This document shows, one piece after another, positions 2,066 to 19,135 of a stretch of 49,698 nucleotides of DNA (position 1 is the first letter of the stretch; the number at the start of each line of letters is the position of its first letter). The stretch lies in the IMG/VR virus record IMGVR_UViG_3300045988_135203, positions 1-49,698 of that record; one strand, 5' to 3'. A model generated the notes under the pieces. The model did no database searches, was not told the DNA's origin, and saw nothing but the letters and a program-made list of their open reading frames with translations. Position numbers and translations under genes: made by a program. The stretch comes from a virus.

Positions 2066-2094
2066 ATTATATATTATTTTTTATAAAAAATCAA
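2066..2094 (-). promoter_or_regulatory. Class A promoter upstream of the tRNA cluster
   Basis: Conserved module AAATTGATTTTTTATAAAAAATAATATATAATATATAC. Confidence 0.55.
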
Positions 2095-2242
2095 TTTAAA
2101 ATTTTTAACCAAGACATTTGTAAAGGTTTTGTTTTTACGGTTACTAAACTCTTTACTCTAAACCTACCGTCAATCATCAACCCAAATGATAATCTTTTTC
2201 TTGTTAGAAAATATTTGCTGTTTAAATGTCTTTTATATACTT

Positions 2243-2271
2243 ATTATATATTATTTTTTATAAAAAATCAA
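2243..2271 (-). promoter_or_regulatory. Class A promoter (tandem with 2066-2094)
   Basis: TTGATT-N17-TATAAT with conserved AT-rich spacer. Confidence 0.55.
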
Positions 2272-2273
2272 TG

Positions 2274-2621
2274 TTAAGAAAATGACCAGCCATTTTTCTT
2301 AATAATTCTCATCATATTATCCCTACCAACAGGATTCATAGAATGAATATGAAATGTAGCATCAATTTGCCATCCATCTACATGCTGCTTTTCTTCAAGC
2401 CATTCAAGAAACTTAATATAATCTCCCCCAAACATCCGCATTTCACCCGCATCATGGTCAAGACTTACATCTCCAAGATATAAACATCTTTTTCCAGAGT
2501 AAGAAAGCTCTGTCTCCGCTGTACAAGCAATAATCGCCGCATATACACTTCTAAGCCATGTATAATCAGAAGGTGCGGGTCTCACATCATCAATCCACAG
2601 ATTTGTCTTCATACTCTCCAT
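2274..2621 (-). CDS. Hypothetical protein
   Basis: 115-aa ORF. A class A promoter lies downstream of its stop and the gene is tightly packed with 2590-2865. Confidence 0.55.
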   Translation of the reverse strand: MESMKTNLWIDDVRPAPSDYTWLRSVYAAIIACTAETELSYSGKRCLYLGDVSLDHDAGEMRMFGGDYIKFLEWLEEKQHVDGWQIDATFHIHSMNPVGRDNMMRIIKKNGWSFS

Positions 2622-2865
2622 CCTCTTTCATAACTTCAATTATACCCTGATGTATAAGATAACGTTCCCATTTTTCTGGATGCTCATTACTTCCTACTAA
2701 AGTAGTAAGCATTTCTGGGGTGTATAATCCTAAATCTCCAGGAGGATTAATACTAAATATATTTGCCGCTTTCTTTACTGCAGCTCTGAGCATTCTTACT
2801 TTTTTCTCTAAGTGAAGAATTTGTGTATACAAAACTTCTTCTCTCGTCTTGGTTAAATCACTCAT
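2590..2865 (-). CDS. Hypothetical protein
   Basis: 91-aa ORF directly preceded by a class A promoter at 2898-2926. Confidence 0.6.
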   Translation of the reverse strand: MSDLTKTREEVLYTQILHLEKKVRMLRAAVKKAANIFSINPPGDLGLYTPEMLTTLVGSNEHPEKWERYLIHQGIIEVMKEDGEYEDKSVD

Positions 2866-2897
2866 TTTTATTTACCCTCTCTTAACTTTCTATAAAT

Positions 2898-2926
2898 ATT
2901 ATATTATAATTTTTATAAAAAATCAA
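2898..2926 (-). promoter_or_regulatory. Class A promoter for 2590-2865
   Basis: TTGATT-N17-TATAAT. Confidence 0.55.
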
Positions 2927-2939
2927 TTAAGAATAAAAG

Positions 2940-3488
2940 CTACTTTTCTTTCCATTGATGGCGTCTTTGGGATTTCCAGTTTCGCTCTCTAACACGATAC
3001 CAATCATCCCACCAACCATCAGGATAATCATTTCTACTACCACGGTTAAATTCCTTAAATTCAGGATTATCATACATTGCCGCAACCTGTCTAATTTTTC
3101 GTGGGCGTGTATGTGGACCACCTTTGTGTTTATGAATTCCTTCTACTGGTTCTCTGCGGAACTCACCACGATAAGTTTTGTTTTTCTTATACCTTTTCCA
3201 CCTCTGCTCAGAAGTTTCTAGTGGAAGATTTTTATACTTCTCTACCCAAAACAAATGTGCAGATTTGTAATAAATGTGCGGGTCAATCTGACGACCATAA
3301 CCATCATAATACTGGTCATTCATGCGGTCATTAACCAGAAAACCCCAAACATCTTTACGAAAACCTCTTGCTAAGTATCCAATAAATTCTCTTTCATTTT
3401 TAGCAATGCGCTGAATAGTTAAGTGCATATAGAATTTATTAAAACTATAACAATAAATTTCTTCTTTAGGCATTTCAATATTGTACAT
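2940..3488 (-). CDS. Hypothetical basic Trp/Tyr-rich protein
   Basis: 182-aa ORF with strong coding composition. Nested antisense ORFs were discarded. Confidence 0.6.
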   Translation of the reverse strand: MYNIEMPKEEIYCYSFNKFYMHLTIQRIAKNEREFIGYLARGFRKDVWGFLVNDRMNDQYYDGYGRQIDPHIYYKSAHLFWVEKYKNLPLETSEQRWKRYKKNKTYRGEFRREPVEGIHKHKGGPHTRPRKIRQVAAMYDNPEFKEFNRGSRNDYPDGWWDDWYRVRERNWKSQRRHQWKEK

Positions 3489-3541
3489 AGTAATCTCCTT
3501 TTTAAATTAAATTATTGGATAACTACCATATATCAAACTCC

Positions 3542-3745
3542 TTATGGACGAAGTATGCCTTCATCTGTCACTTCATATACATCCAAAATCTTCGTATAAT
3601 AACCTTGGAAATTTGGATATTTTTCTTTTACAAACTGAACTGCTTTATCCGCATCTGTAGTAAGTACAAAATTACACATAGCATACGTTTTCAGCATTTC
3701 ATCATCAAGGTCAAAAATAACTTTAAAAACTTTCATATTTATCAA
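3542..3745 (-). CDS. Hypothetical small protein
   Basis: 67-aa ORF with GAGG-type RBS context. Confidence 0.45.
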   Translation of the reverse strand: MINMKVFKVIFDLDDEMLKTYAMCNFVLTTDADKAVQFVKEKYPNFQGYYTKILDVYEVTDEGILRP

Positions 3746-3752
3746 CCTCCAA

Positions 3753-3874
3753 TGCCCAGAGAAGGACTTGAACCTTCACTCTAATAATAGAAACAGATTT
3801 ACGTCGCTAAATTGCAGTATAAGTATTTTACAAAACTTTTTAGCTTCTGCCGCGTCTACTTCCGCCATCTGGGC
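3753..3874 (-). tRNA. tRNA-like gene with ~45-nt insertion in the anticodon region (intron-containing, type II or pseudo-tRNA)
   Basis: Perfect acceptor GCCCAGA/TCTGGGC and T-arm GAAGGTTCAAGTCCTTC with a 3-bp D-stem. The anticodon stem GCAGA/TCTGT is separated by an AT-rich insert, and a canonical cloverleaf is only possible if this is spliced or ignored. Confidence 0.35.
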
Positions 3875-4134
3875 TTAATGATTATTCGATTGCCAATCAG
3901 GTTATCACCCTAGAAGTTTATGGACCTCCTCTTGGTGTATAAAGTCATACTCGCGGGCATTTTTAATTTCCTCTTATCTTTTTGTCCTTTATACGCTTCC
4001 AAAACCAAGCCAGGATTTACTTGCTTTACAGAAAACATTACTTTTCCAACCCTTGCAACAAAGTCACTAACGCTCTTTTAAACACTCGAATAAGCTTCAC
4101 CTATTATATTTATAGCTAGCATATCACTATAAAA

Positions 4135-4211
4135 TCCGGATTCTGGGATTCGAACCCAGGACAAACACCGCTTATAAGGCGGCCGCTCTAACCTGACTGA
4201 GCTAAACCCGG
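4135..4211 (-). tRNA. tRNA-Ile-like (anticodon UAU), 7-nt variable loop
   Basis: Typical TAGCTCAGTCAGGTTAGAGC D-arm, anticodon arm GCCGC-CTTATAA-GCGGT, T-arm CTGGGTTCGAATCCCAG. The acceptor starts with C. Confidence 0.6.
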
Positions 4212-4261
4212 TAATTCCCCAACCGACACTAACCAATGGTCTTATGTGGGGTAGTTGTATA

Positions 4262-4338
4262 TTTTTGCGGATTTCGCCGCAAAGGGGGTGAATCGCAGGG
4301 CGCCGCGGTACGAATCTCCGCACGTATTGACTTGGTTA
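4262..4338 (-). ncRNA. Truncated tRNA-Tyr-like element (pseudo-tRNA or small structured RNA)
   Basis: Shares its 5' end GGGGGAGTAACC(A/T)AG with the tRNA-Tyr at 1204-1285 and closes with CACCCCC. It is only ~62 nt of GC-rich sequence and lacks a canonical T-arm. Confidence 0.3.
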
Positions 4339-4406
4339 CTCCCCCGTCCTGCCTCTGGAGTCGGATTTATTTTAAAACGTTCTCATTCTCATAACGTTTG
4401 GTGTTG

Positions 4407-5186: not shown

Positions 5187-5920
5187 TCATTGCCTTCGCT
5201 GCCTCCCATAAGAGCCATCATCATAAGCGGATTACTCATATCCAGACCAAAAGCATTTGTACCTGTACTATTCATTCCGCCCATAAGCATCATCATTGGA
5301 AGCATATCTTTCATATTACCAGAATTCTCTCCCAGGAACATCAGCGGAAGCAGGTTTCCAAAAGGCTGGTCAGCAGAAGCATTTGCACCGGAAAAATCAA
5401 TCAGTGTAACAATTTTGGTCACAAAATCAAAGCCAAACATAGATTTTGTTGGAAGAATCTCTTTTTTCTCACCTGCGGCAACATCTACTACATGAATGCC
5501 ATTATCTACAGATGTTACAAATACTGCATTGCCATTTGTATGACGAATAACATCACCAACATGAACATCTTTAATTGCACATGGCATTGCATAAATCATG
5601 CCTCTTGCATCAAAGTCAATGAGGTCAACATTAACAATCTCATTCTTCTTCTTATCATAGGAAACGATATCTCCAGCCGCATTTTTAAGTGCAATACCCA
5701 GATGACTCAGATGATATTTGTTAACCGGTCCAAACTCAAGATTTCCAAACATTTTCTTCATTTCCATAGATTTTTTCTCCTTTTTCTCTTTTCTTTCTAT
5801 TCTCTTTTTAATTTTATTAAGTTCTAACTCATTTTTCTTTTCTCTATATAGCTCTTCGCTGATAGACCCATTACAGGTACAGCCATATAGATTATTTACA
5901 TAATGAGGCGGTAAACTCAT
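5084..5920 (-). CDS. Protein with Lys-rich coiled-coil N-terminus and Met/Gly-rich C-terminus (zero-frame product)
   Basis: 278-aa ORF. The C-terminus carries MMMLMGG/MMMALMGG/MMMMMGMM repeats. Confidence 0.6.
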   Translation of the reverse strand: MSLPPHYVNNLYGCTCNGSISEELYREKKNELELNKIKKRIERKEKKEKKSMEMKKMFGNLEFGPVNKYHLSHLGIALKNAAGDIVSYDKKKNEIVNVDLIDFDARGMIYAMPCAIKDVHVGDVIRHTNGNAVFVTSVDNGIHVVDVAAGEKKEILPTKSMFGFDFVTKIVTLIDFSGANASADQPFGNLLPLMFLGENSGNMKDMLPMMMLMGGMNSTGTNAFGLDMSNPLMMMALMGGSEGNDFFPMMMMMGMMNQAATVPNPVVANMTPEASTQE

Positions 5921-5931
5921 AATCCATCACC

Positions 5932-6288
5932 TTATAATCCTAATTCTTCAAGGATTGGTAAGATTTTATCTTCAAACTGCGGATACAGTTTATATAAAGT
6001 CTGTCTAGCGTTCAATGGTTTGTCTGGTTTTGTGTATCTTGCACATTCCCAATCAATTACCATCTGTACAAAATCGCTATGTGTTTTTGCTTTTACAGTA
6101 TGATGTTTAGCATGATTTCTGTGAAAGTTATGTACTTTCTTATAGTCAAAGAAAGGATACAAAAATACTTTATCCAGGTCATGAAAAAGACTTCTTACTG
6201 TATTGTAGCCAAGGAGTTCTTTTTCGATTTTTCTAAAAGCTTTTCTGTGAGCTAATGTGTATTTGATTCTTTCTTTGTTTTTAATCAT
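5932..6288 (-). CDS. Hypothetical protein
   Basis: 118-aa ORF preceded by a class A-like promoter at 6346-6374 and an AGGAGAGG RBS. Confidence 0.6.
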   Translation of the reverse strand: MIKNKERIKYTLAHRKAFRKIEKELLGYNTVRSLFHDLDKVFLYPFFDYKKVHNFHRNHAKHHTVKAKTHSDFVQMVIDWECARYTKPDKPLNARQTLYKLYPQFEDKILPILEELGL

Positions 6289-6345
6289 ACTCTCTTACCT
6301 CTCCTTTTCTATTTATTTTTTATTTCTTATCTTTATTACTTATTT

Positions 6346-6374
6346 ATTATATAATATTTTTTAAAAATTATCAA
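6346..6374 (-). promoter_or_regulatory. Class A-like promoter for 5932-6288
   Basis: TTGATA-N17-TATAAT. Confidence 0.5.
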
Positions 6375-6399
6375 ATATTATACATTTTTCTGGAAAACC

Positions 6400-6525
6400 T
6401 CACTTTTCAATCACCTCATAATCAATCTCCCCAAATCTTTCCCGCAGAAAGTTTAACTCATACATATCATTAGCTACACACAGATGTTTTACTTTAAAAT
6501 CGTCTACATAATGAACTAAGAACAT
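6400..6525 (-). CDS. Small hypothetical protein (41 aa), absent from the ORF track
   Basis: ATG with GGAGG RBS 7 nt upstream. A class A promoter at 6587-6615 lies directly upstream. Confidence 0.45.
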   Translation of the reverse strand: MFLVHYVDDFKVKHLCVANDMYELNFLRERFGEIDYEVIEK

Positions 6526-6586
6526 AAGCAATACCTCCATTGATTTGAATGATTTTTAAAAGTTTTTCCATTTCATTTACAAATAT

Positions 6587-6615
6587 ATTATAAAATATTT
6601 ATAAATAAAAATCAA
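6587..6615 (-). promoter_or_regulatory. Class A promoter for 6400-6525
   Basis: TTGATT-N17-TATAAT. Confidence 0.5.
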
Positions 6616-6659
6616 TTAAGATTTTCAAGACAGCAAATTTATTTTTTAACTGCGTACTA

Positions 6660-6730
6660 TCCTTTATACTAACCTCGGATATAACCGAGGTATTGGACTC
6701 GAACCAATATTTCAGGCTTGGAGGGCAAAT
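6660..6730 (-). other. tRNA T-arm-like motif followed by a hairpin (no full cloverleaf)
   Basis: TATTGGTTCGAGTCCAATA then CCTCGGTTATATCCGAGG. Possibly a tRNA remnant or a processing or termination signal. Confidence 0.25.
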
Positions 6731-6778
6731 AAAATTTTTTCTTTTTGCTGTTTCTGTCTTTCTTTATCTTATGTATAT

Positions 6779-6807
6779 ATTATATATTATTTTTAATAAA
6801 AAATCAA
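6779..6807 (-). promoter_or_regulatory. Class A promoter (transcribes through the T-arm-like element at 6660-6730)
   Basis: AAATTGATTTTTTATTAAAAATAATATATAATATATACATAAGATAAAG, a near-consensus copy. Confidence 0.55.
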
Positions 6808-6827
6808 TTTGATTTTATGAAGCTAGT

Positions 6828-7121
6828 TTACAGATTTAACCGCGCCATAAGGTCTTCCAGATTCTTCTTCTCCTGGTCTGTAAACTCTACTGACTGCGCT
6901 GACGTTGTAGTAGGAAACGCAGAATCAGAATCCGCAGACACTGCACCTGTCTCAATCTGAATTTTTGGGCAAGTTAAAGTAATGGCAATCTGTACACGAT
7001 CTCCGCCATCGTTAGCCCATACATAAATTTTTTTCTCATGCTCACCAATAAAATTATTTCCAAAAGACTCTCTAAGCTTTTCTGTTACTTCCTGTTTTGC
7101 TACTGTTCCTCTTGCTGCCAT
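6828..7121 (-). CDS. Hypothetical protein
   Basis: 97-aa ORF whose stop overlaps the start of 7121-8410. Confidence 0.55.
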   Translation of the reverse strand: MAARGTVAKQEVTEKLRESFGNNFIGEHEKKIYVWANDGGDRVQIAITLTCPKIQIETGAVSADSDSAFPTTTSAQSVEFTDQEKKNLEDLMARLNL

Positions 7122-8410
7122 TATTTATTCTCCTCTTCTATTTTTAAAATTTTATAATCTTTAAATTTTCTTCTTATTGCGGGTAAAAAATCTTCATAGC
7201 ATTCCCCACAAACGAATGAGCCATTATAATCAAGTTGATTTCCACAGATTACACAAGATACTCTTCCACCAATGCGGAATTTAGGTACGATTCTACCAGA
7301 TTCATCAAAAACACTATTTACTGCAGTTCGATAATGAGAATTCCCCCAATACCAATGTGAAATTTCTTTTACTTTATAAGCATATTGTGGAATATAGCAA
7401 CTAGACCTTAATAAATCATTAAAGTCAAGACTACCTGGAGCATCAATAATAATGTCATTTAAAGGCACAGCTTTACTATTGATTACCATATATTTATCAT
7501 ACAATTCTTCGTCGAAAGAAGCTAAAAAATTCTCCCCATCCATTTTTAAACCAATCCTTCCAGAAATGTATTGATTGGTGAAATCAGTATATTTGCAATT
7601 TAAAGAAGGTTCAATTAACTCTTTTTTAGCTAAATTAAGTCCAACATTAGAAGTAAAAGGATATTGTCTGCCTGCAAACATAATATCCCAAGTATCAGAT
7701 AAATGAATCCAAACTCGCCACTTCTTAGAATTCCATGGAACTTCAGTAGGAAAATCTGGTAAAATATAATCTTTTTTATCCGCCCGCAGATAGCACATAA
7801 TAGTATGCTTATCTACCATATAAGATAGATTACCCGCACGAAAATCACCATCTAAAGCATGACAAGAATGCCAGCTATGACAATTCTCACTGGCTGATAA
7901 ATAGTCTAATGGATGTACTGAAAGACATAATGTTCCTGTAATTTTATCTTCCTGAATGAGCATACTTGCGGCGTTCTGTAGATTTTCAAGCTTTTTAGAA
8001 TCTTTCTCAAAAAATTTAAAGGCTTTAATAATTTTCATGCCTTTTGGAATTTTTTCTCCATCATATTCAAAGTCTTCAACGACTTTGTTTTCATAAAAAC
8101 CATCTTTCTGTATATCAATGAATCTGGCAAGGTCTGAATTGTCATGGTTACAATCAACAGAAGTTAAAAAATCTTTTACTCTTCGTATTTTTTCTTCATC
8201 TGAAAGTTCAAAAGTAACTTTTTTAGGTAATTCAATGATAAATTTACCCCCAAAAGCTTCAATAAAATCTCTTTTTGCATTGAGCCATTCTTCAAAAAGG
8301 CTGTCAGTATTTACAAACCTCTCTCCTGGAACTTTAGGAATTTCCTGCGAATAATGAATTACAAGCTCAAATTGCTCCTGGATTTTCTTAATTTCATCAT
8401 TGAATACCAT
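7121..8410 (-). CDS. Large paralog 1 of a duplicated family (HPLDY...WNSKKWR core, C-terminal CxxC zinc ribbon)
   Basis: 429-aa ORF sharing S[VI]HPLDY-x7-N-x3-W-SC-x4-DG-x-[FY]R-G and WNSKKWR with 10956-12710. The C-terminus reads CVICGN...CGEC. Confidence 0.7.
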   Translation of the reverse strand: MVFNDEIKKIQEQFELVIHYSQEIPKVPGERFVNTDSLFEEWLNAKRDFIEAFGGKFIIELPKKVTFELSDEEKIRRVKDFLTSVDCNHDNSDLARFIDIQKDGFYENKVVEDFEYDGEKIPKGMKIIKAFKFFEKDSKKLENLQNAASMLIQEDKITGTLCLSVHPLDYLSASENCHSWHSCHALDGDFRAGNLSYMVDKHTIMCYLRADKKDYILPDFPTEVPWNSKKWRVWIHLSDTWDIMFAGRQYPFTSNVGLNLAKKELIEPSLNCKYTDFTNQYISGRIGLKMDGENFLASFDEELYDKYMVINSKAVPLNDIIIDAPGSLDFNDLLRSSCYIPQYAYKVKEISHWYWGNSHYRTAVNSVFDESGRIVPKFRIGGRVSCVICGNQLDYNGSFVCGECYEDFLPAIRRKFKDYKILKIEEENK

Positions 8411-9455
8411 TTTCTTTTAACTCCTCTTTTTCCTTTTTCTTTTTAGACCTCATTTTTGCATTATGAACTCTACACGCTGGACAAATTGTTGTTGGATTAT
8501 CTGCATCAATTTCAAACGCATTATTACATTGCGCGCACCAATCTACTTCAGTTGTACAACAATCTGGACAATAATATTTAGTTTTATTACCATCTTTGCT
8601 TAAAGCTGGAATAACTTCATAATCATGGAAATATTTATTACATTTATCGCATTTTAAAGTTGCATAATTATACTCAGCATCATCATCATCATACCAAGAT
8701 TTTTTTCTTCCTCTTTGAAAATAATAATTCCAAGAATTATTGGCATAACTATATTCAATATACTCAAAAAATGGTATATCTTTTACTTTTAGCATATTTT
8801 CAACTTTTTGTATAGTATTTAACATTGCCCCGACACGAAGAGTTTCACTAATGGTATGTTCATCTTCATAGCCAATAGATAAATTAACTCCTGCAATTCC
8901 CCAGGTTGGACAAATTACACTAATATCAGAAAAAGAACCAAAAGTTTCGACAAAGCCAAATTTTTCTATGTATTCTACAAAATCTCTATTATCACAATCA
9001 TAAAATACACAATCATTTGTACCTCTGCGGTCAAGCTGAATAATATATTTTAATTCTGATTCTGGAGATTTAATATCTTCAACTAATTGACTTGCTCCAA
9101 CAGCGCCAATTTCTTCATCTGTTGTAAAAATAATTGAAGGTCTATATCCATGTTTTAAAATTGTCAAAATAGCAAAAATACCTGCGCGGTCATCTGCCCC
9201 TAAACCATCTGGACTCCAGCAAACCCCTTTTCGTTCATCATAATATATATCTTCTGGGGGACTAGAAAACACTGTATCCATATGTGCAACTAAGGCTATT
9301 GGAATTTCACCTACCGCATAAAGATATTCTGATGCAACAATTACTTTTTTATATCTTTTCTTTAAATAACTATATAAAGCTCTACGCATTGAATTTTGTG
9401 TTAAAGAAGCTAAAGATTCAAAAAGTTTAAATTCATTTCGATTAAGTCTTTCCAT
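8397..9455 (-). CDS. M20/M28/M42-like Zn metallopeptidase domain fused to a C-terminal multi-CxxC zinc ribbon
   Basis: Motifs ALVAHMDTV (H-x-D), GADDRAG and TTDEEIGAVGA (Glu-Glu) in order, as in MH-clan aminopeptidases. The C-terminus reads CDKC...CPDCC...CAQC...CPAC. Confidence 0.65.
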   Translation of the reverse strand: MERLNRNEFKLFESLASLTQNSMRRALYSYLKKRYKKVIVASEYLYAVGEIPIALVAHMDTVFSSPPEDIYYDERKGVCWSPDGLGADDRAGIFAILTILKHGYRPSIIFTTDEEIGAVGASQLVEDIKSPESELKYIIQLDRRGTNDCVFYDCDNRDFVEYIEKFGFVETFGSFSDISVICPTWGIAGVNLSIGYEDEHTISETLRVGAMLNTIQKVENMLKVKDIPFFEYIEYSYANNSWNYYFQRGRKKSWYDDDDAEYNYATLKCDKCNKYFHDYEVIPALSKDGNKTKYYCPDCCTTEVDWCAQCNNAFEIDADNPTTICPACRVHNAKMRSKKKKEKEELKENGIQ

Positions 9456-9483
9456 TCACATTCCCCCTTTATTTTATATATAT

Positions 9484-9512
9484 ATTATATATTATTTATA
9501 ATAAAAAATCAA
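9484..9512 (-). promoter_or_regulatory. Class A promoter for 8397-9455
   Basis: TTGATT-N17-TATAAT. Confidence 0.55.
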
Positions 9513-10294
9513 TTATGGTCTATTTGCTCTTGAGCTTCCAAAAGAAAATCCTCATTAGCAAACATCATTGCTCTATAACATGCACGACAAGCTCCTCCAC
9601 TCATACAACGTTGTCCGCAACTAACTCTTTTTTTAATTACATCTTTTACAATTAAACGATTTAGTGCGGGATAGTCTAAATCTGTAACCAAAAGGTCTAA
9701 CCGCACATTCCATTCTTTTCTATTTTTATATATATCAAAAATAGCCTCTTCTTGATTGAGACCATCTGCATTAAATTCGTATGTAGTTATATATTTATCA
9801 TATATATCTAAGTCTTCTGGACGAATCCAAGAGCCACAAATGCCATTTTCTCTTTTTAAATCATCTTTTGCGGCGAGGTTAGGTGTTATGCGCAATGGAC
9901 ATTCGGTCAGCTCTGTTAATTGCGGTAATTGAAAAAATAGAGGCGCATCAATATTTAAGTAACATACTCCCATATGTACAAGCGCTTTTGCCTGATGAAA
10001 TGCAGTAACTGGTAAACCGCTATAAGAAGGAATACCATTATTTATACTATTTAATATTTCCCAGCTTTCAAAGGCTTCTGTAATTAATTTGTTTCTAGAT
10101 AAAGTATTATAATTTTTTAATTCTTCCCAATCTATAATTCTACTTCCTCTTGGCTGTAAAGAAAGAATTATAGTTTTATCAGGATATTGTTCAAATATTT
10201 CTGGTAATATTTTTCTATCTTTAAATGAGACTTTAATTTCATCTGCTTGGTCAAGAATGTTTTTTCTATGACCATATCTTAAACAAAACTTCAT
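9509..10294 (-). CDS. Hypothetical protein with C-terminal Cys cluster (CGQRCMSGGACRACY)
   Basis: 261-aa ORF preceded by a class A promoter at 9484-9512. Confidence 0.6.
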   Translation of the reverse strand: MKFCLRYGHRKNILDQADEIKVSFKDRKILPEIFEQYPDKTIILSLQPRGSRIIDWEELKNYNTLSRNKLITEAFESWEILNSINNGIPSYSGLPVTAFHQAKALVHMGVCYLNIDAPLFFQLPQLTELTECPLRITPNLAAKDDLKRENGICGSWIRPEDLDIYDKYITTYEFNADGLNQEEAIFDIYKNRKEWNVRLDLLVTDLDYPALNRLIVKDVIKKRVSCGQRCMSGGACRACYRAMMFANEDFLLEAQEQIDHN

Positions 10295-10367
10295 AAAAAT
10301 TCTCCTTTTTTATAATAATTATATCAAAATCAAGTTTTTTCGTCAAAAATTAGTATAAGGTCTTTTT

Positions 10368-10410
10368 GTTCCCGGGTTGCGATGCGCGCAGGCGTTGGCG
10401 CCCGGTTTTG
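10368..10410. terminator. GC-rich hairpin downstream of 10468-10902
   Basis: CCCGGGTTGCGATGCGCGCAGGCGTTGGCGCCCGG then TTTTGCTTTT on the plus strand. It is atypically GC-rich for this genome. Confidence 0.35.
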
Positions 10411-10467
10411 CTTTTCCTCTTTTGACTAAATAAAAAGAAAAGGGATAGATTTCTCTATCCCTTGGTC

Positions 10468-10902
10468 TTACTCTTCTACAGAATCAGTAGGCTCAACAGC
10501 CTGAGCTGCCTTATATCCTTTAACTACTCTGGATTTCTTACCTTCAGCCGCAGGTAACTCAATATCAGCTTTCTCTGCCTTACCAGCCTCAACCAGTTTA
10601 TTCAGACGGTATACACATTTACTTACAGTCACATCTTCCATATCAACTTTAGCTGCAATCTCAGCAATCGGCTCATAATCCTCTGTCAATACTGCTTCAA
10701 TAGCTTTTGTAAGCTCATCTCCTGCAGAACGTTTCTTAGCCGCCAGCTCTTTTGCCTTAATCTCTTTGTTATCAAGAATTGCAATCTGTCTTACACAAAA
10801 AGCTTCAAGAGTAGACTCATCCAGGTCCATTTTACCTGTTCTCGCAAGTGTAAGCAGCTCATTATAAATTTCCTTTTTTGTCCATTTTCTTTCTTCTTCC
10901 AT
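10468..10902 (-). CDS. Putative DNA-binding protein (helix-turn-helix-like segment), acidic C-terminus
   Basis: 144-aa ORF with the segment VSKCVYRLNKLVEAG, followed by a GC-rich hairpin at 10368-10410. Confidence 0.5.
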   Translation of the reverse strand: MEEERKWTKKEIYNELLTLARTGKMDLDESTLEAFCVRQIAILDNKEIKAKELAAKKRSAGDELTKAIEAVLTEDYEPIAEIAAKVDMEDVTVSKCVYRLNKLVEAGKAEKADIELPAAEGKKSRVVKGYKAAQAVEPTDSVEE

Positions 10903-10955
10903 TATTCTTTTCTCCTTTTTGTTTTTATTATATCATTATTTATTTATTTTGTCAA

Positions 10956-12710
10956 TTAAACATTTAATTCAAAAATTTTGCAAATCCTACCATCAGAATA
11001 CAAATCCATAATTACTTTTGAATCTGATTCATCAATTTTTTCTTTCTCTGCTGTCCAAAAAGTATTAGAATTTCTAATAATTGCAGCGATAGCTTTATCC
11101 GTAAGCTGATCTGTTGTAATATAGTCTAAATCATGCCAGAAAAATGATTCATACTTCTGATGTTTAATCTTACCATTAAAGAAACTACACTCTCCATCAC
11201 ATAAATCATCATAGTCATCATTATAAATTAATAAAGGACGTTTATAGAACTTATCTTCAGTTCCAGGTACTTTTACAAATACTTTAGATAAATTAGAAAT
11301 AAGGTGTAAATTTCCAGTTAAAATATCTTCATCTGTACCATATTCATAGCATGATTCACAAAGAATTTCACCATCTACTTCATAGAAATCTTCATCATAA
11401 ATTCTATCATCACATCTGTCACATCTGCGATATCCAGAACATTCAAGACAAATTGTATCTCCTTCAGAATCCCAAGTAAATTTTTCGCCAGCTGTTCCAC
11501 AAATCATACATTCTGATTTACCAGAATAACAAAATTTAATTTCTGTTTTAGGTCTACTTTCAATATATCTAGGAAAATAACCTAAATGTCCTGAGCAAAA
11601 ATCATTATACATCAAAGTTGTATATGGTTTAACAGAAATCTGATGTTCAACTACATACTCGCTACCTGCTGGATTATCATATGTATCAAAAGCATGGTAT
11701 TTTTCAGACCAATAATCCTCGTGTTCTGTACCCTCAACTTCTCTAATCATCTGATTAACCCAATACTCAGACCGCACTTTGTTATCAAGCTCTTTTAACC
11801 AATTTAAAACTTCTCCTGTAATATATTTATTGCGATATGGATAACTTTTAATTTCACAAATAATGTCATTATTTACAATAAAAAGTTCTCTCCACTTTTT
11901 ACTATTCCAATATTCAATTTTTCCATCAGAAAGCGGAATTGCCATTGGGTTATTTGCTGATTCAAGATAAGCAACCAATACCATTGGAGAGTTCATCATT
12001 TCAACAGTACCCTGGCGATAACATCCATCTTCTTTCCAACTCATACAAGAAGACCAATCACACTCATTATCACTCATGGTCATATAATCAAGAGGATGAA
12101 TGGAAAGAGTAAGTCTACCTTTCAGCTTCTTCTGGTTTAAAGCCTGAGAATGTTTAATTCTGAAATCCTCAAAATAAGGTAAATCATAAGCTGCCGCAAT
12201 TTTACCAATCATTTTGGTAATTTTACATCCAGTAGAAACTCTAATCGGCTTTTCTGGATTCTTAGGATTTGGAACGGCGAAAGAAGCATCACTCCACACA
12301 TTACTAACAAGATTACCAGTATCAAGCATGTAAGCTAACTGGTTACGTACTTTACTTAATCCAGATTCATATTTATAAGCAGAATCAGAATAAACAAAAC
12401 AATCAAACCAAGCATCATAAAAAGCATAAGAATGTCTACCTACTTCTTCAGAGGCACGAGAATCAAAGCAATTTTTGGATACTTTCGCATAGAGTTCATC
12501 AAAGTCGGCTTCAAACTCAATGTCTTTGGAAATCTGAAACTGATGACCAAGCATGGTATACAGATAGCTTTTATTTGCATTCCACTCTCTAAGAATATAA
12601 GAAAGGTCTGCCTTCAAAGGCATATACTGTCCATTGTTTGCAGCATTATCTTCGATATAACTCTTAATCATTGCTTTCTCTTTGTCAGATAATTTATCAA
12701 ATAACATCAT
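10956..12710 (-). CDS. Large paralog 2 of the duplicated family (HPLDY...WNSKKWR core, multiple C-terminal zinc ribbons)
   Basis: 584-aa ORF carrying the same core motifs as 7121-8410 plus CMICG...CLEC...CDRC...CESC. Confidence 0.7.
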   Translation of the reverse strand: MMLFDKLSDKEKAMIKSYIEDNAANNGQYMPLKADLSYILREWNANKSYLYTMLGHQFQISKDIEFEADFDELYAKVSKNCFDSRASEEVGRHSYAFYDAWFDCFVYSDSAYKYESGLSKVRNQLAYMLDTGNLVSNVWSDASFAVPNPKNPEKPIRVSTGCKITKMIGKIAAAYDLPYFEDFRIKHSQALNQKKLKGRLTLSIHPLDYMTMSDNECDWSSCMSWKEDGCYRQGTVEMMNSPMVLVAYLESANNPMAIPLSDGKIEYWNSKKWRELFIVNNDIICEIKSYPYRNKYITGEVLNWLKELDNKVRSEYWVNQMIREVEGTEHEDYWSEKYHAFDTYDNPAGSEYVVEHQISVKPYTTLMYNDFCSGHLGYFPRYIESRPKTEIKFCYSGKSECMICGTAGEKFTWDSEGDTICLECSGYRRCDRCDDRIYDEDFYEVDGEILCESCYEYGTDEDILTGNLHLISNLSKVFVKVPGTEDKFYKRPLLIYNDDYDDLCDGECSFFNGKIKHQKYESFFWHDLDYITTDQLTDKAIAAIIRNSNTFWTAEKEKIDESDSKVIMDLYSDGRICKIFELNV

Positions 12711-12754
12711 ATAATCAATTCCTCTCTTTTTCTTTTCTTTTTTATTATGTATAT

Positions 12755-12783
12755 ATTATATAATTTTTTTAATAAAAAATCAA
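12755..12783 (-). promoter_or_regulatory. Class A promoter for 10956-12710
   Basis: TTGATT-N17-TATAAT. Confidence 0.55.
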
Positions 12784-12789
12784 TGAAGA

Positions 12790-12978
12790 TTAATAGTCGC
12801 GTTTAATTCTGCCGTATCCGTAATATTCAAACATATCTTCCAAATTATCATCCATCGAATGATAATCTTCTTCTGGCTCTACAAAACCTCTTGGACAATC
12901 ATGAACATATTTAAACTCTGTATCACCCATCTGCGCTTTCTCCTGCTCCCTCTGTGCAAAAGTTTTAAGTTCTTCCAT
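12790..12978 (-). CDS. Small acidic hypothetical protein
   Basis: 62-aa ORF. Confidence 0.45.
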   Translation of the reverse strand: MEELKTFAQREQEKAQMGDTEFKYVHDCPRGFVEPEEDYHSMDDNLEDMFEYYGYGRIKRDY

Positions 12979-12991
12979 TATTTATCACCTC

Positions 12992-13192
12992 CTATTTTGA
13001 CATTAATTTAAAAAACTTAGCTTTATCCGCATAGTTGTAAATTAAGTTAAGCATAATAACAAATAACATAAACCAACTTGGTTTATCTCCTGCGGCAGCT
13101 AATCCAATAGAAGCCACCAATAAAATTGACCATATCCAGGCAAAAGTTTTATTATATTTATATTCTTTTGCCCATCTTTCTTTATCAGTCAT
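12992..13192 (-). CDS. Small membrane protein
   Basis: 66 aa with one long hydrophobic segment and a class A promoter at 13224-13252. Confidence 0.5.
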   Translation of the reverse strand: MTDKERWAKEYKYNKTFAWIWSILLVASIGLAAAGDKPSWFMLFVIMLNLIYNYADKAKFFKLMSK

Positions 13193-13223
13193 TTATTTTT
13201 CCTTTCCTTTATTTTGTAAATAT

Positions 13224-13252
13224 ATTATATAATTTTTTTAAATAAAAATCAA
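13224..13252 (-). promoter_or_regulatory. Class A promoter for 12992-13192
   Basis: TTGATT-N17-TATAAT. Confidence 0.55.
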
Positions 13253-13440
13253 TGGCTATCATTGTACCAGCTTTCTACAGTTTTTTTAATGTATTTAAGG
13301 TCATTCTCGCTAAGATCTTCTGGAACATCAATTTGAAAACTGTCAAGATTACCTAATGTTGCCTGCTTTTTAATTTCATTTATAATTTTATCAAGATAAC
13401 ATTGGTGTGCATAACTCATAAATTCTATGCTAGGAATCAT
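13249..13440 (-). CDS. Small hypothetical protein
   Basis: 63-aa ORF tightly packed with 13444-14244. Confidence 0.45.
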   Translation of the reverse strand: MIPSIEFMSYAHQCYLDKIINEIKKQATLGNLDSFQIDVPEDLSENDLKYIKKTVESWYNDSH

Positions 13441-13443
13441 AAT

Positions 13444-14244
13444 TTATTTCTCCTTTATAATATTGCATCTGGTTAAAATAGTCTGATTTACACCCTTATA
13501 AGTTTTATGTGCTTTTACAGTTCCTCTAAGATTATACTCTTCATTCTCTTCAAGGACAGTTTTCTGAGAACTAGTAATCCAAATATATACATTTCCGCAA
13601 ATATCTTCAAGAACATAAAGTGTTTGCATTCCAAAAGCTCCTTCAAGTTCTTTAATTTTTGTAACTTTTGCGGTAATTTCTATTCTTTCTCCTAAAATAC
13701 CCATGTACTGAGAGACAGATTCACCATAAATAAGTGAATCAACAACCTCTGAAATCTGAGTATCTGATAATAGTTTTCCAGTTTCTTCATTACCAATCTT
13801 AGACCATTCAAGTTTAAGAGGTATTAATTCTTCTGGAAAGTCTGATGGAAGTTCAATTTCAGAGCTTAAACCCCAACCCCAAAATTTAGTGTATTTACAA
13901 CCAATAGACTTTAAATAATCTTTATAATTATAAGTATTACCGGAAAAAATGGTAATATAGCCTTTTGTAAATCCAAAAAGTTCTTTCTGAGATTTCCAAT
14001 AGGGGTCATTGTCATGGTATGTTTCAGTGGCGGGACTCCAATAATATGAGTCTTTTGTTATAGTTTTTTGGGAAACCGCACTGCCTGGATACATCTTATT
14101 ATATTCTTTCTCAGTATACCATCTTACTTTACGCTCAGTACCAGTTTTTGGATTTCGTACTTTAATGTACATCTTTCCATTTTCTTTAAAAGGCTCAGTC
14201 AACATTTCCATATTCTGAAATGACTTTGCTACCATACTTATCAT
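13444..14244 (-). CDS. Hypothetical protein
   Basis: 266-aa ORF with a terminator-plus-promoter unit upstream at 14256-14320. Confidence 0.6.
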   Translation of the reverse strand: MISMVAKSFQNMEMLTEPFKENGKMYIKVRNPKTGTERKVRWYTEKEYNKMYPGSAVSQKTITKDSYYWSPATETYHDNDPYWKSQKELFGFTKGYITIFSGNTYNYKDYLKSIGCKYTKFWGWGLSSEIELPSDFPEELIPLKLEWSKIGNEETGKLLSDTQISEVVDSLIYGESVSQYMGILGERIEITAKVTKIKELEGAFGMQTLYVLEDICGNVYIWITSSQKTVLEENEEYNLRGTVKAHKTYKGVNQTILTRCNIIKEK

Positions 14245-14261
14245 CTTCCTTTCTTAACTTT

Positions 14262-14292
14262 CTATAATTATTATATTATATTTTTTATAAAA
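14262..14292 (-). promoter_or_regulatory. Degenerate class A promoter for 13444-14244 (no clear -35)
   Basis: TTTTTTATAAAAAATATAATATAATAATTATAG follows the terminator hairpin. Confidence 0.35.
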
Positions 14293-14320
14293 AATAAAGG
14301 GTGGACTTTTGTCCACCCTT
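14285..14320 (-). terminator. Intrinsic terminator after 14319-14600
   Basis: AAGGGTGGACAAAAGTCCACCCTT hairpin followed by a U-run on the minus RNA. Confidence 0.6.
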
Positions 14321-14600
14321 AATCATTTTTATCTTTACTTAAATCTATAGATTTAAAAAAGCCTCCAATCCAACCTAGCGCACCTGCAATAATTGGTAAG
14401 TTTTCCGGTACGAAAGTTTTAGTGTTAAAAAGAGTATTTAAACTATTACATAGAATATTTCCAAAAGTAATTTTACAGAGCCAGCCTCCAAAATAACTAA
14501 TGAAAAAAGAAATCATTGGAGCAAAAATAATTAAAGCAATAACTCCAACAAAAGCCGCAATTATTCCTAATCCTTCAAAAAAATCACTATCATTCTTCAT
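14319..14600 (-). CDS. Small membrane protein (2 TM helices)
   Basis: 93 aa with hydrophobic segments, followed by an intrinsic terminator. Confidence 0.55.
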   Translation of the reverse strand: MKNDSDFFEGLGIIAAFVGVIALIIFAPMISFFISYFGGWLCKITFGNILCNSLNTLFNTKTFVPENLPIIAGALGWIGGFFKSIDLSKDKND

Positions 14601-14601
14601 A

Positions 14602-14874
14602 TTATTTACTCTCCTTAAATATTACTTTTCCTTCAATAATACCAAAATTAGAATCTTCCTGAAACGTAAATGTTTCTGGTTTTTCATCTTCTCGCATAGG
14701 TCTTGTGAGATACCAAACATCACTATCTTTCCAAGTAGCTTCAATTACTTTCTGCCCTTTTGGAACATCAATAGATATAGTTCCACCCATTTTTTTAGCT
14801 ACTGATTTGCACCCTGTTAAGCTGAACCCCATTACTACTAAAAGCATAATCCCCGCAATTATTTTTTTCTTCAC
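14602..14874 (-). CDS. Lipoprotein (signal peptide plus lipobox LTGC)
   Basis: N-terminus MKKKIIAGIMLLVVMGFSLTGCKS, with a class A promoter at 14909-14937. Confidence 0.6.
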   Translation of the reverse strand: MKKKIIAGIMLLVVMGFSLTGCKSVAKKMGGTISIDVPKGQKVIEATWKDSDVWYLTRPMREDEKPETFTFQEDSNFGIIEGKVIFKESK

Positions 14875-14908
14875 TTTTCTTTTTTTCCTTTCTTTTTATT
14901 ATGTAAAT

Positions 14909-14937
14909 ATTATAGAATATTTTTTTTAAAAAATCAA
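14909..14937 (-). promoter_or_regulatory. Class A promoter for 14602-14874
   Basis: TTGATT-N17-TATAAT. Confidence 0.5.
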
Positions 14938-15017
14938 AAATTTTCTAAAAACAAGGACAAAAAAGTTTAAACTGGATTTTTAAAAAATTTTTTCATACAA
15001 TGTATTTAGAAATTAAA

Positions 15018-15221
15018 TCAACCCACAATCATTCCCTTAATGCTTAAATTTAAAGCAGCAATAATTACTATAATCACCACAATAAATAAAATTGTTATAC
15101 AAATTTTTTCATCTTTATTTCTACTTTTAAATATTACTTTAATGTAAATAGGAATAGTTATATGAAGCATAAAAATAGAAAATAAAAAATAAAAAATAGA
15201 AAAAATATAAATCATGTGCAT
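15018..15221 (-). CDS. Small membrane protein
   Basis: 67 aa, strongly hydrophobic. Confidence 0.45.
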   Translation of the reverse strand: MHMIYIFSIFYFLFSIFMLHITIPIYIKVIFKSRNKDEKICITILFIVVIIVIIAALNLSIKGMIVG

Positions 15222-15421
15222 AAAAAGTAATAAAATAAATAACTGCCGCCAACTAGAAATGCTATAATAACAGCGATTGTCATAGCAATTCCAAGACTAA
15301 TAAATCCCATGGCTACAACACTTCCAAATGAAATATGCTTTCGTTCAGTCCACGCGAAATAAATTCCAAAAGCAAACCAGATAATAAGCCAAATACCAAT
15401 AAATATAATAAAGTAAATCAT
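15212..15421 (-). CDS. Small membrane protein (2 TM helices)
   Basis: 69 aa, hydrophobic. Confidence 0.5.
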   Translation of the reverse strand: MIYFIIFIGIWLIIWFAFGIYFAWTERKHISFGSVVAMGFISLGIAMTIAVIIAFLVGGSYLFYYFLCT

Positions 15422-15439
15422 ATTATTCTCCTTTCTTGT

Positions 15440-15799
15440 TTAAAGATATGACGTATTAGAATATTTGTTGATTGCAGTTTTAGTTTCCTCAAATAAAGTT
15501 GAAGTTACACTTTCATTTGGTGGAAAGTTATAAAAAGTTTTACCAGCGGTTTTACGTGCCATATAGCCGTCAAGCGCAGACATAGCTTTTTCTTCTGTAC
15601 TGTATCGAGCCATTTCAAAATGATGGCTATTTTTACCATATTTTTCTTTAAAAACATCTTCAGTAGTTGGATATAGCCAAATCAAGTAATAATAACTAAT
15701 TCCTGTTTTAGCATTTACAATTTGTTCTTTACTAATACGAACAACTTCATCGGTTGTATTAATAATTGTTTTTCTACTCTGGCTTCTAAAAGTCATCAT
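15440..15799 (-). CDS. Hypothetical protein (start trimmed to the internal Met with GGAG RBS)
   Basis: The ORF-track entry 15440-15844 overlaps the upstream gene. ATGATG at 15799 has a GGAG RBS. Confidence 0.5.
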   Translation of the reverse strand: MMTFRSQSRKTIINTTDEVVRISKEQIVNAKTGISYYYLIWLYPTTEDVFKEKYGKNSHHFEMARYSTEEKAMSALDGYMARKTAGKTFYNFPPNESVTSTLFEETKTAINKYSNTSYL

Positions 15800-16271
15800 T
15801 TTTTCTTGGCTCCTTTTTGATTGGCAAGTCTTTGAGGTCTTCAATAAACCAATATTTATCTGGTCTTATAAAATCAAATTTAACTTTAAAAGACCGTAAA
15901 GTTGTACCAGCATATCCCCATCTTTCTTTATCTCCTTCTTTTCGCCAAACAGGAGCAGATACGGAGATAAAAAGTCCATCTACGGGATCTCTGCCCATAT
16001 ATTTATAGGATGAACGTAACATATCGAGAAAGCAATACTCCTGGTAAGTAAGAAAAGGCTGTGGTTTTTCATATTCTTCAATAAGCCATTTTTGAAACTT
16101 TTCCGTACATCTTCTATAAGAAACCGGGTCTGTAGGATTAAGTTTACAATTTTCACAGTCAAGACTACTACACACTCTTGGTTCATTGGTAGCTTTATCG
16201 ACGCCGTAGTTAAGATATTCTACGGCATCGTCTGCAAGTTTCTTAGCAAAATAGACTCTATTTGTAGGCAT
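15786..16271 (-). CDS. Hypothetical Cys-containing protein
   Basis: 161-aa ORF. Confidence 0.55.
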   Translation of the reverse strand: MPTNRVYFAKKLADDAVEYLNYGVDKATNEPRVCSSLDCENCKLNPTDPVSYRRCTEKFQKWLIEEYEKPQPFLTYQEYCFLDMLRSSYKYMGRDPVDGLFISVSAPVWRKEGDKERWGYAGTTLRSFKVKFDFIRPDKYWFIEDLKDLPIKKEPRKNDDF

Positions 16272-16272
16272 A

Positions 16273-16563
16273 TTATTTTACTTCCTCTACGTAATAAGTA
16301 ATCCAGCTTTCTACTTCTTCCTGATAAATTTCTTCTACGTCTTCTTCAGTATATCCTTCTTCAAGACCATAATCTTCCGGGTTTTCCCAAATATCACCAT
16401 AAGATACAATACCATGATAACCTTCATAAGACTGATAATCCTCAAGTGCGCATTCATATGCGTAATTTTCTGCGGCAGCTCGATTTTCAAACTCCTCTGC
16501 TTCAGCTACAAGTCGTGCACCGCCAAAACCGCCACCTAAGCCTGCATAAATATTATATTTCAT
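16273..16563 (-). CDS. Acidic Tyr/Glu-rich hypothetical protein (start trimmed to MKYNIYAG)
   Basis: GGAGG RBS 8 nt before the ATG at 16563. The longer track ORF overlaps its neighbour. Confidence 0.5.
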   Translation of the reverse strand: MKYNIYAGLGGGFGGARLVAEAEEFENRAAAENYAYECALEDYQSYEGYHGIVSYGDIWENPEDYGLEEGYTEEDVEEIYQEEVESWITYYVEEVK

Positions 16564-16897
16564 AATTAATTTCCTCCGTTGAGTTTGATTTATCTTTATC
16601 AAATTTAGCCTTATGCATATTCCAAATTGTTTCAGGCTGAATATTACCATGTTTTACCATATCAAATAAAAAACTTGTCATATTTGCGGCAGTGGTCGCA
16701 TCTGACTTTGCTTTAACTTTATTTTCTGGAATAAATTGAGTTGCATAATAGCATGTGTTTGCAATATCTCTAACTTCATCATAACTTAATTGTACAGTTA
16801 AATAAGAACTATTTTTATCTTCGCAATTTAATTTTTTAATAATCATATTATTATTATCACTACTCCTTTTCACAATTAATAGTTGTGTGAGCTGCAA
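16553..16897 (-). CDS. Hypothetical protein
   Basis: 114-aa ORF. Confidence 0.5.
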   Translation of the reverse strand: MQLTQLLIVKRSSDNNNMIIKKLNCEDKNSSYLTVQLSYDEVRDIANTCYYATQFIPENKVKAKSDATTAANMTSFLFDMVKHGNIQPETIWNMHKAKFDKDKSNSTEEINYEI

Positions 16898-17315
16898 TTA
16901 ATTCATCAATAACATAACATTCATTTTCTTTAATATTATTGAAATTAACATTTAAAGCAGAAATTCCAAAAATGATGTTATCATCAGTTCCAAGAGGTAA
17001 CTTAGCAAGATATAAGTAACTATCTTTGCGATAAATGTATTTGTATCCCTGAGTATAATTTTTTAAAAAATCGTGTTCAAGTTTAGTGATAAGTGGAACA
17101 TATGGGGCTGAAGCCCATTCCAAAGCACGATATTTACAATTAAAAAGCATTTGATGCGGATTTGTACGAACGCAATCAAATAAACAATTATCGCATTCGA
17201 TTGCTTCGCAAGGTGTTAATGTCCTATCTTTTTTATCAATGGCAAAACCGCTGCTACTAAAGTTAGTTATTTTAAGAATTTCATCTTTGTAATGCTCAAA
17301 ATTAGTTTTCATCAT
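16860..17315 (-). CDS. Cys-rich hypothetical protein
   Basis: 151 aa with CEAIECDNCLFDC...C motifs. Confidence 0.55.
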   Translation of the reverse strand: MMKTNFEHYKDEILKITNFSSSGFAIDKKDRTLTPCEAIECDNCLFDCVRTNPHQMLFNCKYRALEWASAPYVPLITKLEHDFLKNYTQGYKYIYRKDSYLYLAKLPLGTDDNIIFGISALNVNFNNIKENECYVIDELIAAHTTINCEKE

Positions 17316-17884
17316 GCATCAAAGTCTTTTCCGAAATGTTTTGCCAAAAGGAAAAGGCTAAATCTTGGGATACAAGCATAGTTTTTAAAAGTAGGACGGT
17401 CGATTTCACGTAATACAAAATCAAGGTCAAACCAGCTAACTGCCGCAATTTCCTCTTCCTGAATTTTAAAGTTGTTTATTTTTGTATCTTCTGGAACTTC
17501 ATAAAGATAAACATATGCAAGTTCTTTATCAATAAATTTTTTACCATGAAATACTTCAGTATAATCAATATTCATTGTTGAAAGAAATTTAAGCTTATCT
17601 TTATCAGTTTTGATACCGAGCTCTTCTGAAAGTTCTCTTAATGCTCCCTGCTCTGTTGTTTCACCTGCTGGAACATGACCTGCGCATGAAGTATCCCATT
17701 GTCCCGGGTAAGAATCTTTATTGAATGCGCGCAGCTGTAAGAGAATTTGCGGTTTTCCATTTTTGTATCTTATAACCCATACATGGGAAGTATGATGGCG
17801 GTATCCTTTAGCATGACATACATCTCTTGGTGCGGTTTTACCTGTTAAACGTCCAAATTCATCAATAATATCGAAATATTCCAT
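17312..17884 (-). CDS. NUDIX hydrolase
   Basis: Canonical Nudix box GHVPAGETTEQGALRELSEELGI (G-x5-E-x7-REUxEExGU). The start is trimmed to MEYFDII, which has a GGAGGA RBS. Confidence 0.85.
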   Translation of the reverse strand: MEYFDIIDEFGRLTGKTAPRDVCHAKGYRHHTSHVWVIRYKNGKPQILLQLRAFNKDSYPGQWDTSCAGHVPAGETTEQGALRELSEELGIKTDKDKLKFLSTMNIDYTEVFHGKKFIDKELAYVYLYEVPEDTKINNFKIQEEEIAAVSWFDLDFVLREIDRPTFKNYACIPRFSLFLLAKHFGKDFDA

Positions 17885-19134: not shown

Positions 19135-19135
19135 T

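Follow-up and report, generated by a model that had tools for sequence, protein, structure and literature searches.

Enzymes of the GNAT superfamily, which includes the non-canonical members FemA/FemX, ATE1, N-myristoyltransferase and malonyl-CoA decarboxylase, bind their acceptor and donor at the α1-α2 loop, strand β3, the β4-α3 loop and the β5-α4 junction. GNAT-fold enzymes are also encoded by phages, where they take part in host takeover or DNA modification. Rac of the phiKMV-like phages acts on host proteins (PMC7552054); Mom of phage Mu acts on DNA bases, and further GNATs occur in jumbo phages (PMC7824862). The present analysis concerns two paralogous genes, A and B, on the minus strand of a viral DNA of 49,698 nucleotides (IMG/VR record IMGVR_UViG_3300045988_135203, positions 1 to 49,698), which is referred to at its full length as the window. 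From structural models, the products of both genes are predicted to contain a highly divergent, zinc-finger-bearing variant of the GNAT-like α/β fold.

Compared by description only, A and B resemble Rac and Mom in being phage-encoded proteins with a (here predicted) GNAT fold, and they lie behind σ70-like, probably early promoters, as Rac does. Unlike the A/B family, Rac retains the residues of the acetyl-CoA pocket and can be recognised as a GNAT from its sequence. Zinc fingers, which both A and B carry, have been reported for neither Rac nor Mom.

Paralogy and shared motifs

Paralog A (7121-8410, minus strand) is an open reading frame (ORF) of 429 amino acids (aa), consisting of N-terminal helices, the GNAT-like core (7376-8053, minus strand; approximately aa 120-345) and one zinc site. 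Paralog B (10956-12710, minus strand) is an ORF of 584 aa. It comprises an N-terminal helical region, the GNAT-like core (11535-12263, minus strand; aa 150-392), two zinc sites and, at the C-terminus, a domain that only the B family has. The two proteins align by BLASTP with E=3e-17 and 23% identity over about 300 aa. When a hidden Markov model (HMM) of the core was run against the six-frame translation of the window, it matched A and B only (E=3e-65 and 2e-74), the next best ORF having E=0.4. On this sequence evidence, A and B are true paralogs whose similarity lies far beyond chance, as an initial annotation, made from the letters of the window and a list of its ORFs, had proposed for these two large ORFs with a common central block.

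The blocks common to both proteins are HPLDY, W-x-SC, G-x-YR-x-G, WNSKKWR, YP and [FY]ND; in the core of B they read SIHPLDY, W-x-SC, G-x-YR-x-G, WNSKKWR, YPYxN and YND. The shared block described in the initial annotation is thus real, with corrected spacing: HPLDY is followed by x5-N in both proteins rather than by x7-N, and SC and DG are separated by three residues in A and five in B. An alignment of 36 sequences from both families contains 23 invariant columns, which correspond in A to K46, S149, G159, S164, H166, P167, S174, N176, W180, S182, C183, G188, G193, M198, W226, K229, K230, W231, R232, Y250, P251, D332 and C386. Judged by this alignment, the motifs are real and specific, and an origin as low-complexity artefacts is ruled out.

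Most of the approximately 20 invariant polar or aromatic residues are kept in the paralogs of Enterococcus phages, and the conserved polar residues appear compatible with catalysis or with the binding of a specific ligand. The histidine of HPLDY had been taken as invariant, but this did not hold in the wider family. The three paralogs of Enterococcus phage VRE9_4 each have a different residue at this position: His, Arg or Asp. Because it is replaced in these relatives, the HPLDY histidine is unlikely to be a universal catalytic residue.

Zinc sites

Both proteins carry CxxC pairs towards their C-termini, as the initial annotation had noted, but these form one site in A and two in B rather than the four ribbons counted there for the longer protein. 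The site of A (7199-7255, minus strand) is built from two CxxC knuckles, C386-x2-C389 and C401-x2-C404. All four of its cysteines are invariant across the A family, and relatives of about 460 aa have extra CxxC pairs that are not present in A. The zinc-finger region of B (11349-11510, minus strand; aa 401-454) has four knuckles in the arrangement CxxC-x16-CxxC-x5-CxxC-x17-CxxC, which corresponds to two sites in a LIM-like tandem. Across the family, the number of zinc sites ranges from one to about four.

With two consecutive zinc sites made from four CxxC knuckles, B resembles LIM domains and tandem zinc ribbons. It differs from LIM domains in the linker between the sites, which has five residues instead of two, and in its ligands, all of which are cysteines. 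The profile of the C-terminal Cys region of the family matches the LIM domains of CRP2 (1ibi_A) with E=1.1e-5; the Pfam LIM model gives B a score of 13.5 bits, under its cut-off of 22.9.

Predicted fold

The initial annotation had proposed AlphaFold as a check, and modelling gave a GNAT-like order of elements for both paralogs. The AlphaFold2 (AF2) model of A (m155f97e325f4, built from a 29-sequence alignment) has a predicted local distance difference test score (pLDDT) of 82.6 and a predicted template modelling score (pTM) of 0.79. Its core reads β(156-164)-α-α(191-198)-β(203-209)-β(229-237)-β(243-250)-α(255-270)-β. The core of B (aa 150-392), modelled alone from a 25-sequence alignment, reached a pLDDT of 76.9 and a pTM of 0.73 and shows the same order of elements, plus a hairpin between β2 and β3. 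The GNAT order β1-α1-α2-β2-β3-β4-α3-β5-α4-β6 is thus seen in two independent AF2 models. Comparison of the full-length A model listed four GNAT-fold chains, with Z values of at most 5.6, which indicates likeness at the level of the fold only.

The conserved motifs fall on defined elements of the A model. SVHPLD belongs to β1 (156-164), and the α1-α2 loop carries W180, S182, C183, G188 and R191. WNSKKWR (226-232) lies on β3, Y250-P251 follows β4 (243-250), and FND occupies 330-332, at the β5-α4 junction. A and B thus share with the GNAT superfamily not only the order of secondary-structure elements but also the placement of motifs on the α1-α2 loop, β3, the β4-α3 loop and the β5-α4 junction.

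The differences from the superfamily are considerable. Sequence-profile similarity is absent, and the Q/R-x-x-G-x-G/A motif is replaced by Y-P-x-x-N; the β4-α3 loop is RQYPFTSNVG in A and KSYPYRNKYIT in B, with only Y-P (and N) conserved. A and B further add the β2-β3 hairpin, an N-terminal helical region of 110-150 aa and the C-terminal zinc fingers, and they have an invariant Cys in the α1-α2 loop.

Family and distribution

From their sequences, the two proteins can be assigned to no well-known enzyme family, which agrees with the initial assignment of unknown function: the A/B core has no significant match in Pfam, NCBIfam, PADLOC or the sequences of the PDB. The closest described group is phrog_18912 (PHROGs v4, unknown function), which matches A with E=3.8e-13 (aa 34-256) and B with E=7.8e-10 (aa 159-308). 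The VRE9_4 homologs carry the same PHROG annotation, although the 623-aa Enterococcus paralog is filed under PHROG 29713 despite having the same core. The PHROG comes without functional or structural annotation, and a literature search on phrog_18912 returned nothing useful.

Homolog searches recovered 1,941 relatives of A and 2,946 of B. Almost none of them has a name, the sole one among the B homologs being a generic label on entry P0199, and many lie on contigs of 170-205 kb. A joint profile of the A and B families retrieved 4,870 representatives at 50% identity, 2,422 of them with E<=1e-30. Among genomes sampled at one per GTDB species, all 30 confirmed loci were on contigs of metagenome bins (Lachnospiraceae, Clostridia and others), and none came from an isolate; several of these contigs, 148-176 kb long, are presumably phage genomes. 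Among deposited phages, tblastn located the family in Enterococcus phages H1, EF1, EF5 and VRE9_1-4 (134-142 kb) and on one faecal contig. No near-identical deposited phage was found by megablast with the block of genes around A and B, and tblastn with B was likewise empty. By its portal protein, the window falls near phAss-1 and the EF1-like phages, a group of large siphoviruses for which the rank of a new family has been proposed (PMC10607447).

The structural neighbours of the family in BFVD are all uncharacterised phage proteins, including two paralogs of Dickeya phage JA29. Copy numbers in related phages, a further check that had been suggested, are two in the window and in a 191-kb relative (L001), three in VRE9_4 and, by fold, at least two in JA29. 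The family was thus observed only in large phages of the Firmicutes type from the gut, in three lineages of cultured phages (Enterococcus, and Dickeya by fold) and in metagenome bins; the carriers seen here are all phages or contigs of phage-like character.

Proposed function

We tentatively regard A and B as divergent GNAT-like transferases that act on a macromolecule, a reading which draws on the models and to which we give slightly less than even credence. The enzymes would attach an acyl or aminoacyl group to a macromolecule, which may be a protein of the host or the phage or a nucleic acid such as tRNA or DNA. Their donor would not be bound in the canonical manner of acetyl-CoA, because the Q/R-x-x-G-x-G/A motif is missing. 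The zinc fingers and the helical regions would select the target, and the two paralogs may have different targets or act jointly. Three features hint at a polyanionic substrate or at a donor of a non-canonical kind: the lack of the acetyl-CoA motif, the basic character of β3 (K-K-W-R) and the invariant Cys. The candidate catalytic residues can be narrowed to D169, C183, K229/K230/R232, Y250 and D332.

Several points weigh against an enzymatic role of this kind. Pfam models of the Acetyltransf_* group gave no match at E<=10, either with the full-length proteins or with 25 core-only sequences, and motif A (Q/R-x-x-G-x-G/A), the loop that holds the pyrophosphate of acetyl-CoA, is absent from the β4-α3 loop in the alignments. 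The α1-α2 loop (residues 176-187 of A) has a pLDDT below 50 in the models of both A and B, and the placement of the conserved residues in a cleft follows from the order of secondary-structure elements only. The HPLDY histidine is not universally conserved. What the analysis shows is the paralogy, the size of the family and its restriction to phages, the synteny and the likeness in fold; enzymatic activity, donor, target and timing are inferred.

The main rival, which we consider possible but rather doubtful, is that A and B are non-catalytic binders or adaptors on a GNAT-like scaffold. Their zinc fingers, basic β3 strand and helical N-terminus would bind a host factor or nucleic acid and redirect or block that factor early in infection, without any chemistry. 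A GNAT-like fold without enzymatic activity exists in ornithine decarboxylase antizyme. The absence of the acetyl-CoA motif and the replacement of the HPLDY histidine in some paralogs would fit such a role, as would the fact that LIM-like and zinc-ribbon modules are typically interaction modules. The presence of several paralogs per genome, two in the window and three in VRE9_4, also fits a set of diversified binders. However, some 20 polar or aromatic residues do not vary between the two families, although these are only about 23% identical; such conservation is expected more of active sites, or of pockets for small ligands, than of surfaces where proteins meet.

The transferase reading can be drawn out much further, into a version that we regard as a long shot. 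The family would then form a new class of GNAT-fold transferases that does without the canonical use of acetyl-CoA. Its members might depend on aminoacyl-tRNA, in the manner of Fem, L/F-transferase and ATE1, or on an acylated acyl carrier protein, and would rewrite host N-termini jointly with the co-transcribed aminopeptidase (N-degron editing by the phage). Alternatively, they might mark DNA or tRNA with an unknown acyl group, the zinc fingers serving to recognise the target. The family represents large, conserved and testable phage dark matter.

Gene neighbourhood and expression

Two of the genes between the paralogs, a peptidase with zinc ribbons and a Cys-cluster protein, had been recognised in the initial annotation and are confirmed here; a third ORF, of 144 aa, had been overlooked. 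The peptidase gene (8397-9455, minus strand), the last 14 nt of which overlap the start of A, encodes a metallopeptidase of the M20/M28/M42 type with 352 aa and two C-terminal zinc ribbons (four CxxC). In Pfam it scores 22.8 bits against Peptidase_M28 (cut-off 21.3) and 23.3 bits against M20 (cut-off 24.6). It also matches phrog_34186 (E=8.8e-57), phrog_4191, annotated as 'peptidase' (E=7e-33), and PepT-like proteins (E=1e-7). Its metal ligands were seen by eye only.

The Cys-cluster protein (9509-10294, minus strand) has 261 aa and is encoded by the first gene of an operon with the peptidase and A. Its invariant residues (alignment A5) are C226-x3-C230-x5-C236-x2-C239, N139, R158-P159 and W195, so that its sequence could accommodate an iron-sulphur or zinc site. 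No match was found in Pfam, PHROG or PDB, including a PDB profile search, and the idea that it might be a U32-like TIM-barrel iron-sulphur protein found no support. The gene is syntenic in most relatives and is the most constant neighbour of paralog B.

The overlooked ORF (10468-10902, minus strand) encodes an acidic protein of 144 aa with weak HTH_20 similarity only (E=0.024). It has its own promoter and terminator and is conserved in its position between B and the 261-aa gene. On the other side of A, an ORF of 97 aa (6828-7121, minus strand) shares 1 nt with the A stop codon; its place in relatives is invariably after A or after the peptidase.

Three promoter-like sequences, all of them pattern matches, were found on the minus strand. 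The σ70-type sequence at 10927-10955 is a perfect TTGACA-17-TATAAT with an extended -10 TG, a consensus match only, and precedes the 144-aa gene. That gene is directly followed by an intrinsic-terminator-like hairpin with a 10-bp stem and a T-run (10440-10463, minus strand), an arrangement that suggests an isolated transcription unit with very strong early expression. The σ70-type sequence at 10318-10346 is a near-perfect TTGACG-17-TATAAT with TG. It stands in front of the 261-aa gene, after which come the peptidase gene, A and the 97-aa gene, and these ORFs overlap or abut. Upstream of B, a weaker σ70-like sequence (12755-12783) matches the consensus at 10 of 12 positions. Because their genes lie behind such near-consensus σ70 promoters, A and B are probably made early in infection by the host RNA polymerase, and a host-modifying early function is plausible.

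L001 and the majority of 30 diverse loci have the gene order p266, p278, B, p144, p261, peptidase, A, p97 (the numbers giving protein lengths). In VRE9_4 and in locus L025, the order is paralog, peptidase, paralog. The order is not universal: L035, L037, L041 and L044 lack A, L039 has neither the peptidase nor A, and B and the peptidase are missing in L030 and L031. The block, described initially as rich in zinc ribbons, is therefore a syntenic stretch conserved within one phage lineage, and it is possibly, but not necessarily, a functional unit, its members being individually dispensable.

An obligatory multi-subunit machine made of A, B, the metallopeptidase and the four-Cys protein, in which neither paralog functions alone, is improbable for the same reason. 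The retention of the order from B to p97 in most of the 30 loci and L001, the paralog-peptidase-paralog order in VRE9_4 and L025, and the ORF overlaps, which suggest translational coupling, would all suit a machine of this type. Against it, A, B and the peptidase each drop out in some loci, and gene order within one lineage can reflect shared descent. Moreover, peptidase homologs occur in 423 phage records, including those of Klebsiella, Pectobacterium and Vibrio phages of about 43 kb, in which the family search found no member. The peptidase was rejected as an exclusive partner of A and B on the same grounds, many of these records being phages of about 43 kb.

Some relatives carry further genes beside the family. 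In VRE9_4 (L003), three paralogs of 623, 399 and 335 aa surround the peptidase homolog at 5795-12188, and the cluster adjoins divergently transcribed genes for an anaerobic ribonucleotide reductase. In the 191-kb relative (L001/L002), the genes downstream of paralog A (12657-19166) include those for a 499-aa radical-SAM protein and a 441-aa YcaO protein, after which comes a sigma-70 factor. This cluster, which resembles those for ribosomally synthesised and post-translationally modified peptides, does not occur at the matching position of the window, where ORFs of 97, 118 and 278 aa and tRNA genes are found instead.

Less probable relationships

The PcfJ-like domain (PF14284) is found in conjugative plasmids, beside AcrIIA9/PcfK, and in many large phages of Firmicutes. 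If A and B were a distant branch of it, they might share the possibly anti-defence role of PcfJ; we consider this very unlikely. Both families occur in large Firmicutes phages, PcfJ also in mobile elements, and each has an invariant Cys within a local motif that looks superficially alike. By eye, 'P-x15-C' of PcfJ (…LTPHSLQEIIQEGSILRHCVGSQHY…TTIVFIRR) resembles HPLDY…W-R-SC-HALDGDY…TIMCYLR, with equal spacing from P to C. In addition, contig MT840058 has a gene with a PcfJ domain and, about 800 bp downstream of it, a family member. This 4.4-kb human faecal phage contig (L005, MT840058.1) carries a 630-aa ORF with the PcfJ domain at 257-2146 and a 471-aa family member with several CxxC pairs at 2937-4349. 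Unlike the A/B core, the PcfJ domain is C-terminal and comes without zinc fingers.

The comparison used PcfJ of pCF10, 11 diverse PcfJ proteins from plasmids and phages, and the PcfJ-domain ORF of MT840058. The PF14284 HMM did not match A, B or the three VRE9_4 paralogs at E<=10, while the PcfJ control scored 148.9 bits; conversely, the core HMM matched no PcfJ protein. The hhalign probability was below 1% with a single PcfJ as well as with a profile built from 13 PcfJ sequences. Over the motif region, the alignment score was 9.1, compared with 10.4 ± 2.1 for column-shuffled alignments, and 139 of 200 shuffles equalled or exceeded the real score. A homolog search with PcfJ returned only close Enterococcus fragments, and a literature search on the function of PcfJ yielded nothing useful. 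With the HMM, hhalign and shuffled controls all negative, the relationship was rejected, the adjacency on MT840058 being all that is left of it.

Equally improbable is a host-modifying core of the nucleotidyltransferase, ADP-ribosyltransferase or nuclease type using conserved His, Asp and Arg, as suggested in the initial annotation: the conserved His, Asp, Arg and Lys and the early-gene context agree with it, and the compatibility of the polar residues with catalysis stands, but there is no Pfam, NCBIfam or PADLOC match and no fold support for any of these classes, the core resembles GNATs instead, the His is not universal, and an invariant Glu of the H-Y-E or R-S-E type is missing.

Other features of the window

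Downstream of the block, seven tRNA genes are located at 185-4211 (minus strand): Lys-TTT, His-GTG, Asp-GTC, Tyr-GTA, Trp-CCA, Met-CAT and Ile-TAT. The window also encodes a Thg1-like tRNA-His guanylyltransferase (39398-40267, minus strand; phrog_4717, E=4e-85). Together with the tRNA-His of the same DNA (329-401), this enzyme suggests that the G-1 maturation of tRNA-His takes place on the phage side.

A gene for a NUDIX hydrolase (17312-17971, minus strand; Pfam E=1.4e-19) belongs to the same leftward gene array as the block. A sigma-factor homolog (41253-42311, plus strand; phrog_5767, E=3e-49) represents another zinc-finger fusion, its C-terminal 50 or so aa also matching the Cys-rich portion of profiles for endonuclease VII, HNH and Lar-like proteins. 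Between 22000 and 40000, the ORFs are short (at most 240 aa, the Thg1-like gene excepted) and the AT skew is strongly negative; an HNH homing endonuclease is encoded at 37675-38400. Recoding of stop codons was rejected for this region. Because reassignment of TAG or TGA does not lengthen the ORFs, the stretch from 22 to 40 kb is dense in small genes rather than recoded.

Implications

Thousands of clusters at 50% identity make up the family to which A and B belong. Its conservation extends over large, abundant gut phages of Firmicutes and cultured phages of Enterococcus, and the family has so far had neither a name nor an assigned function. The predicted GNAT-like fold provides the first testable biochemical hypothesis for it, namely that its members transfer acyl or aminoacyl groups at an early stage of infection. 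For experiments, the cultured Enterococcus phages EF1, EF5, H1 and VRE9_1-4 are a tractable system. Should A and B prove active, they would represent a new cofactor- or target-specificity class of phage enzymes for host takeover or nucleic-acid modification.

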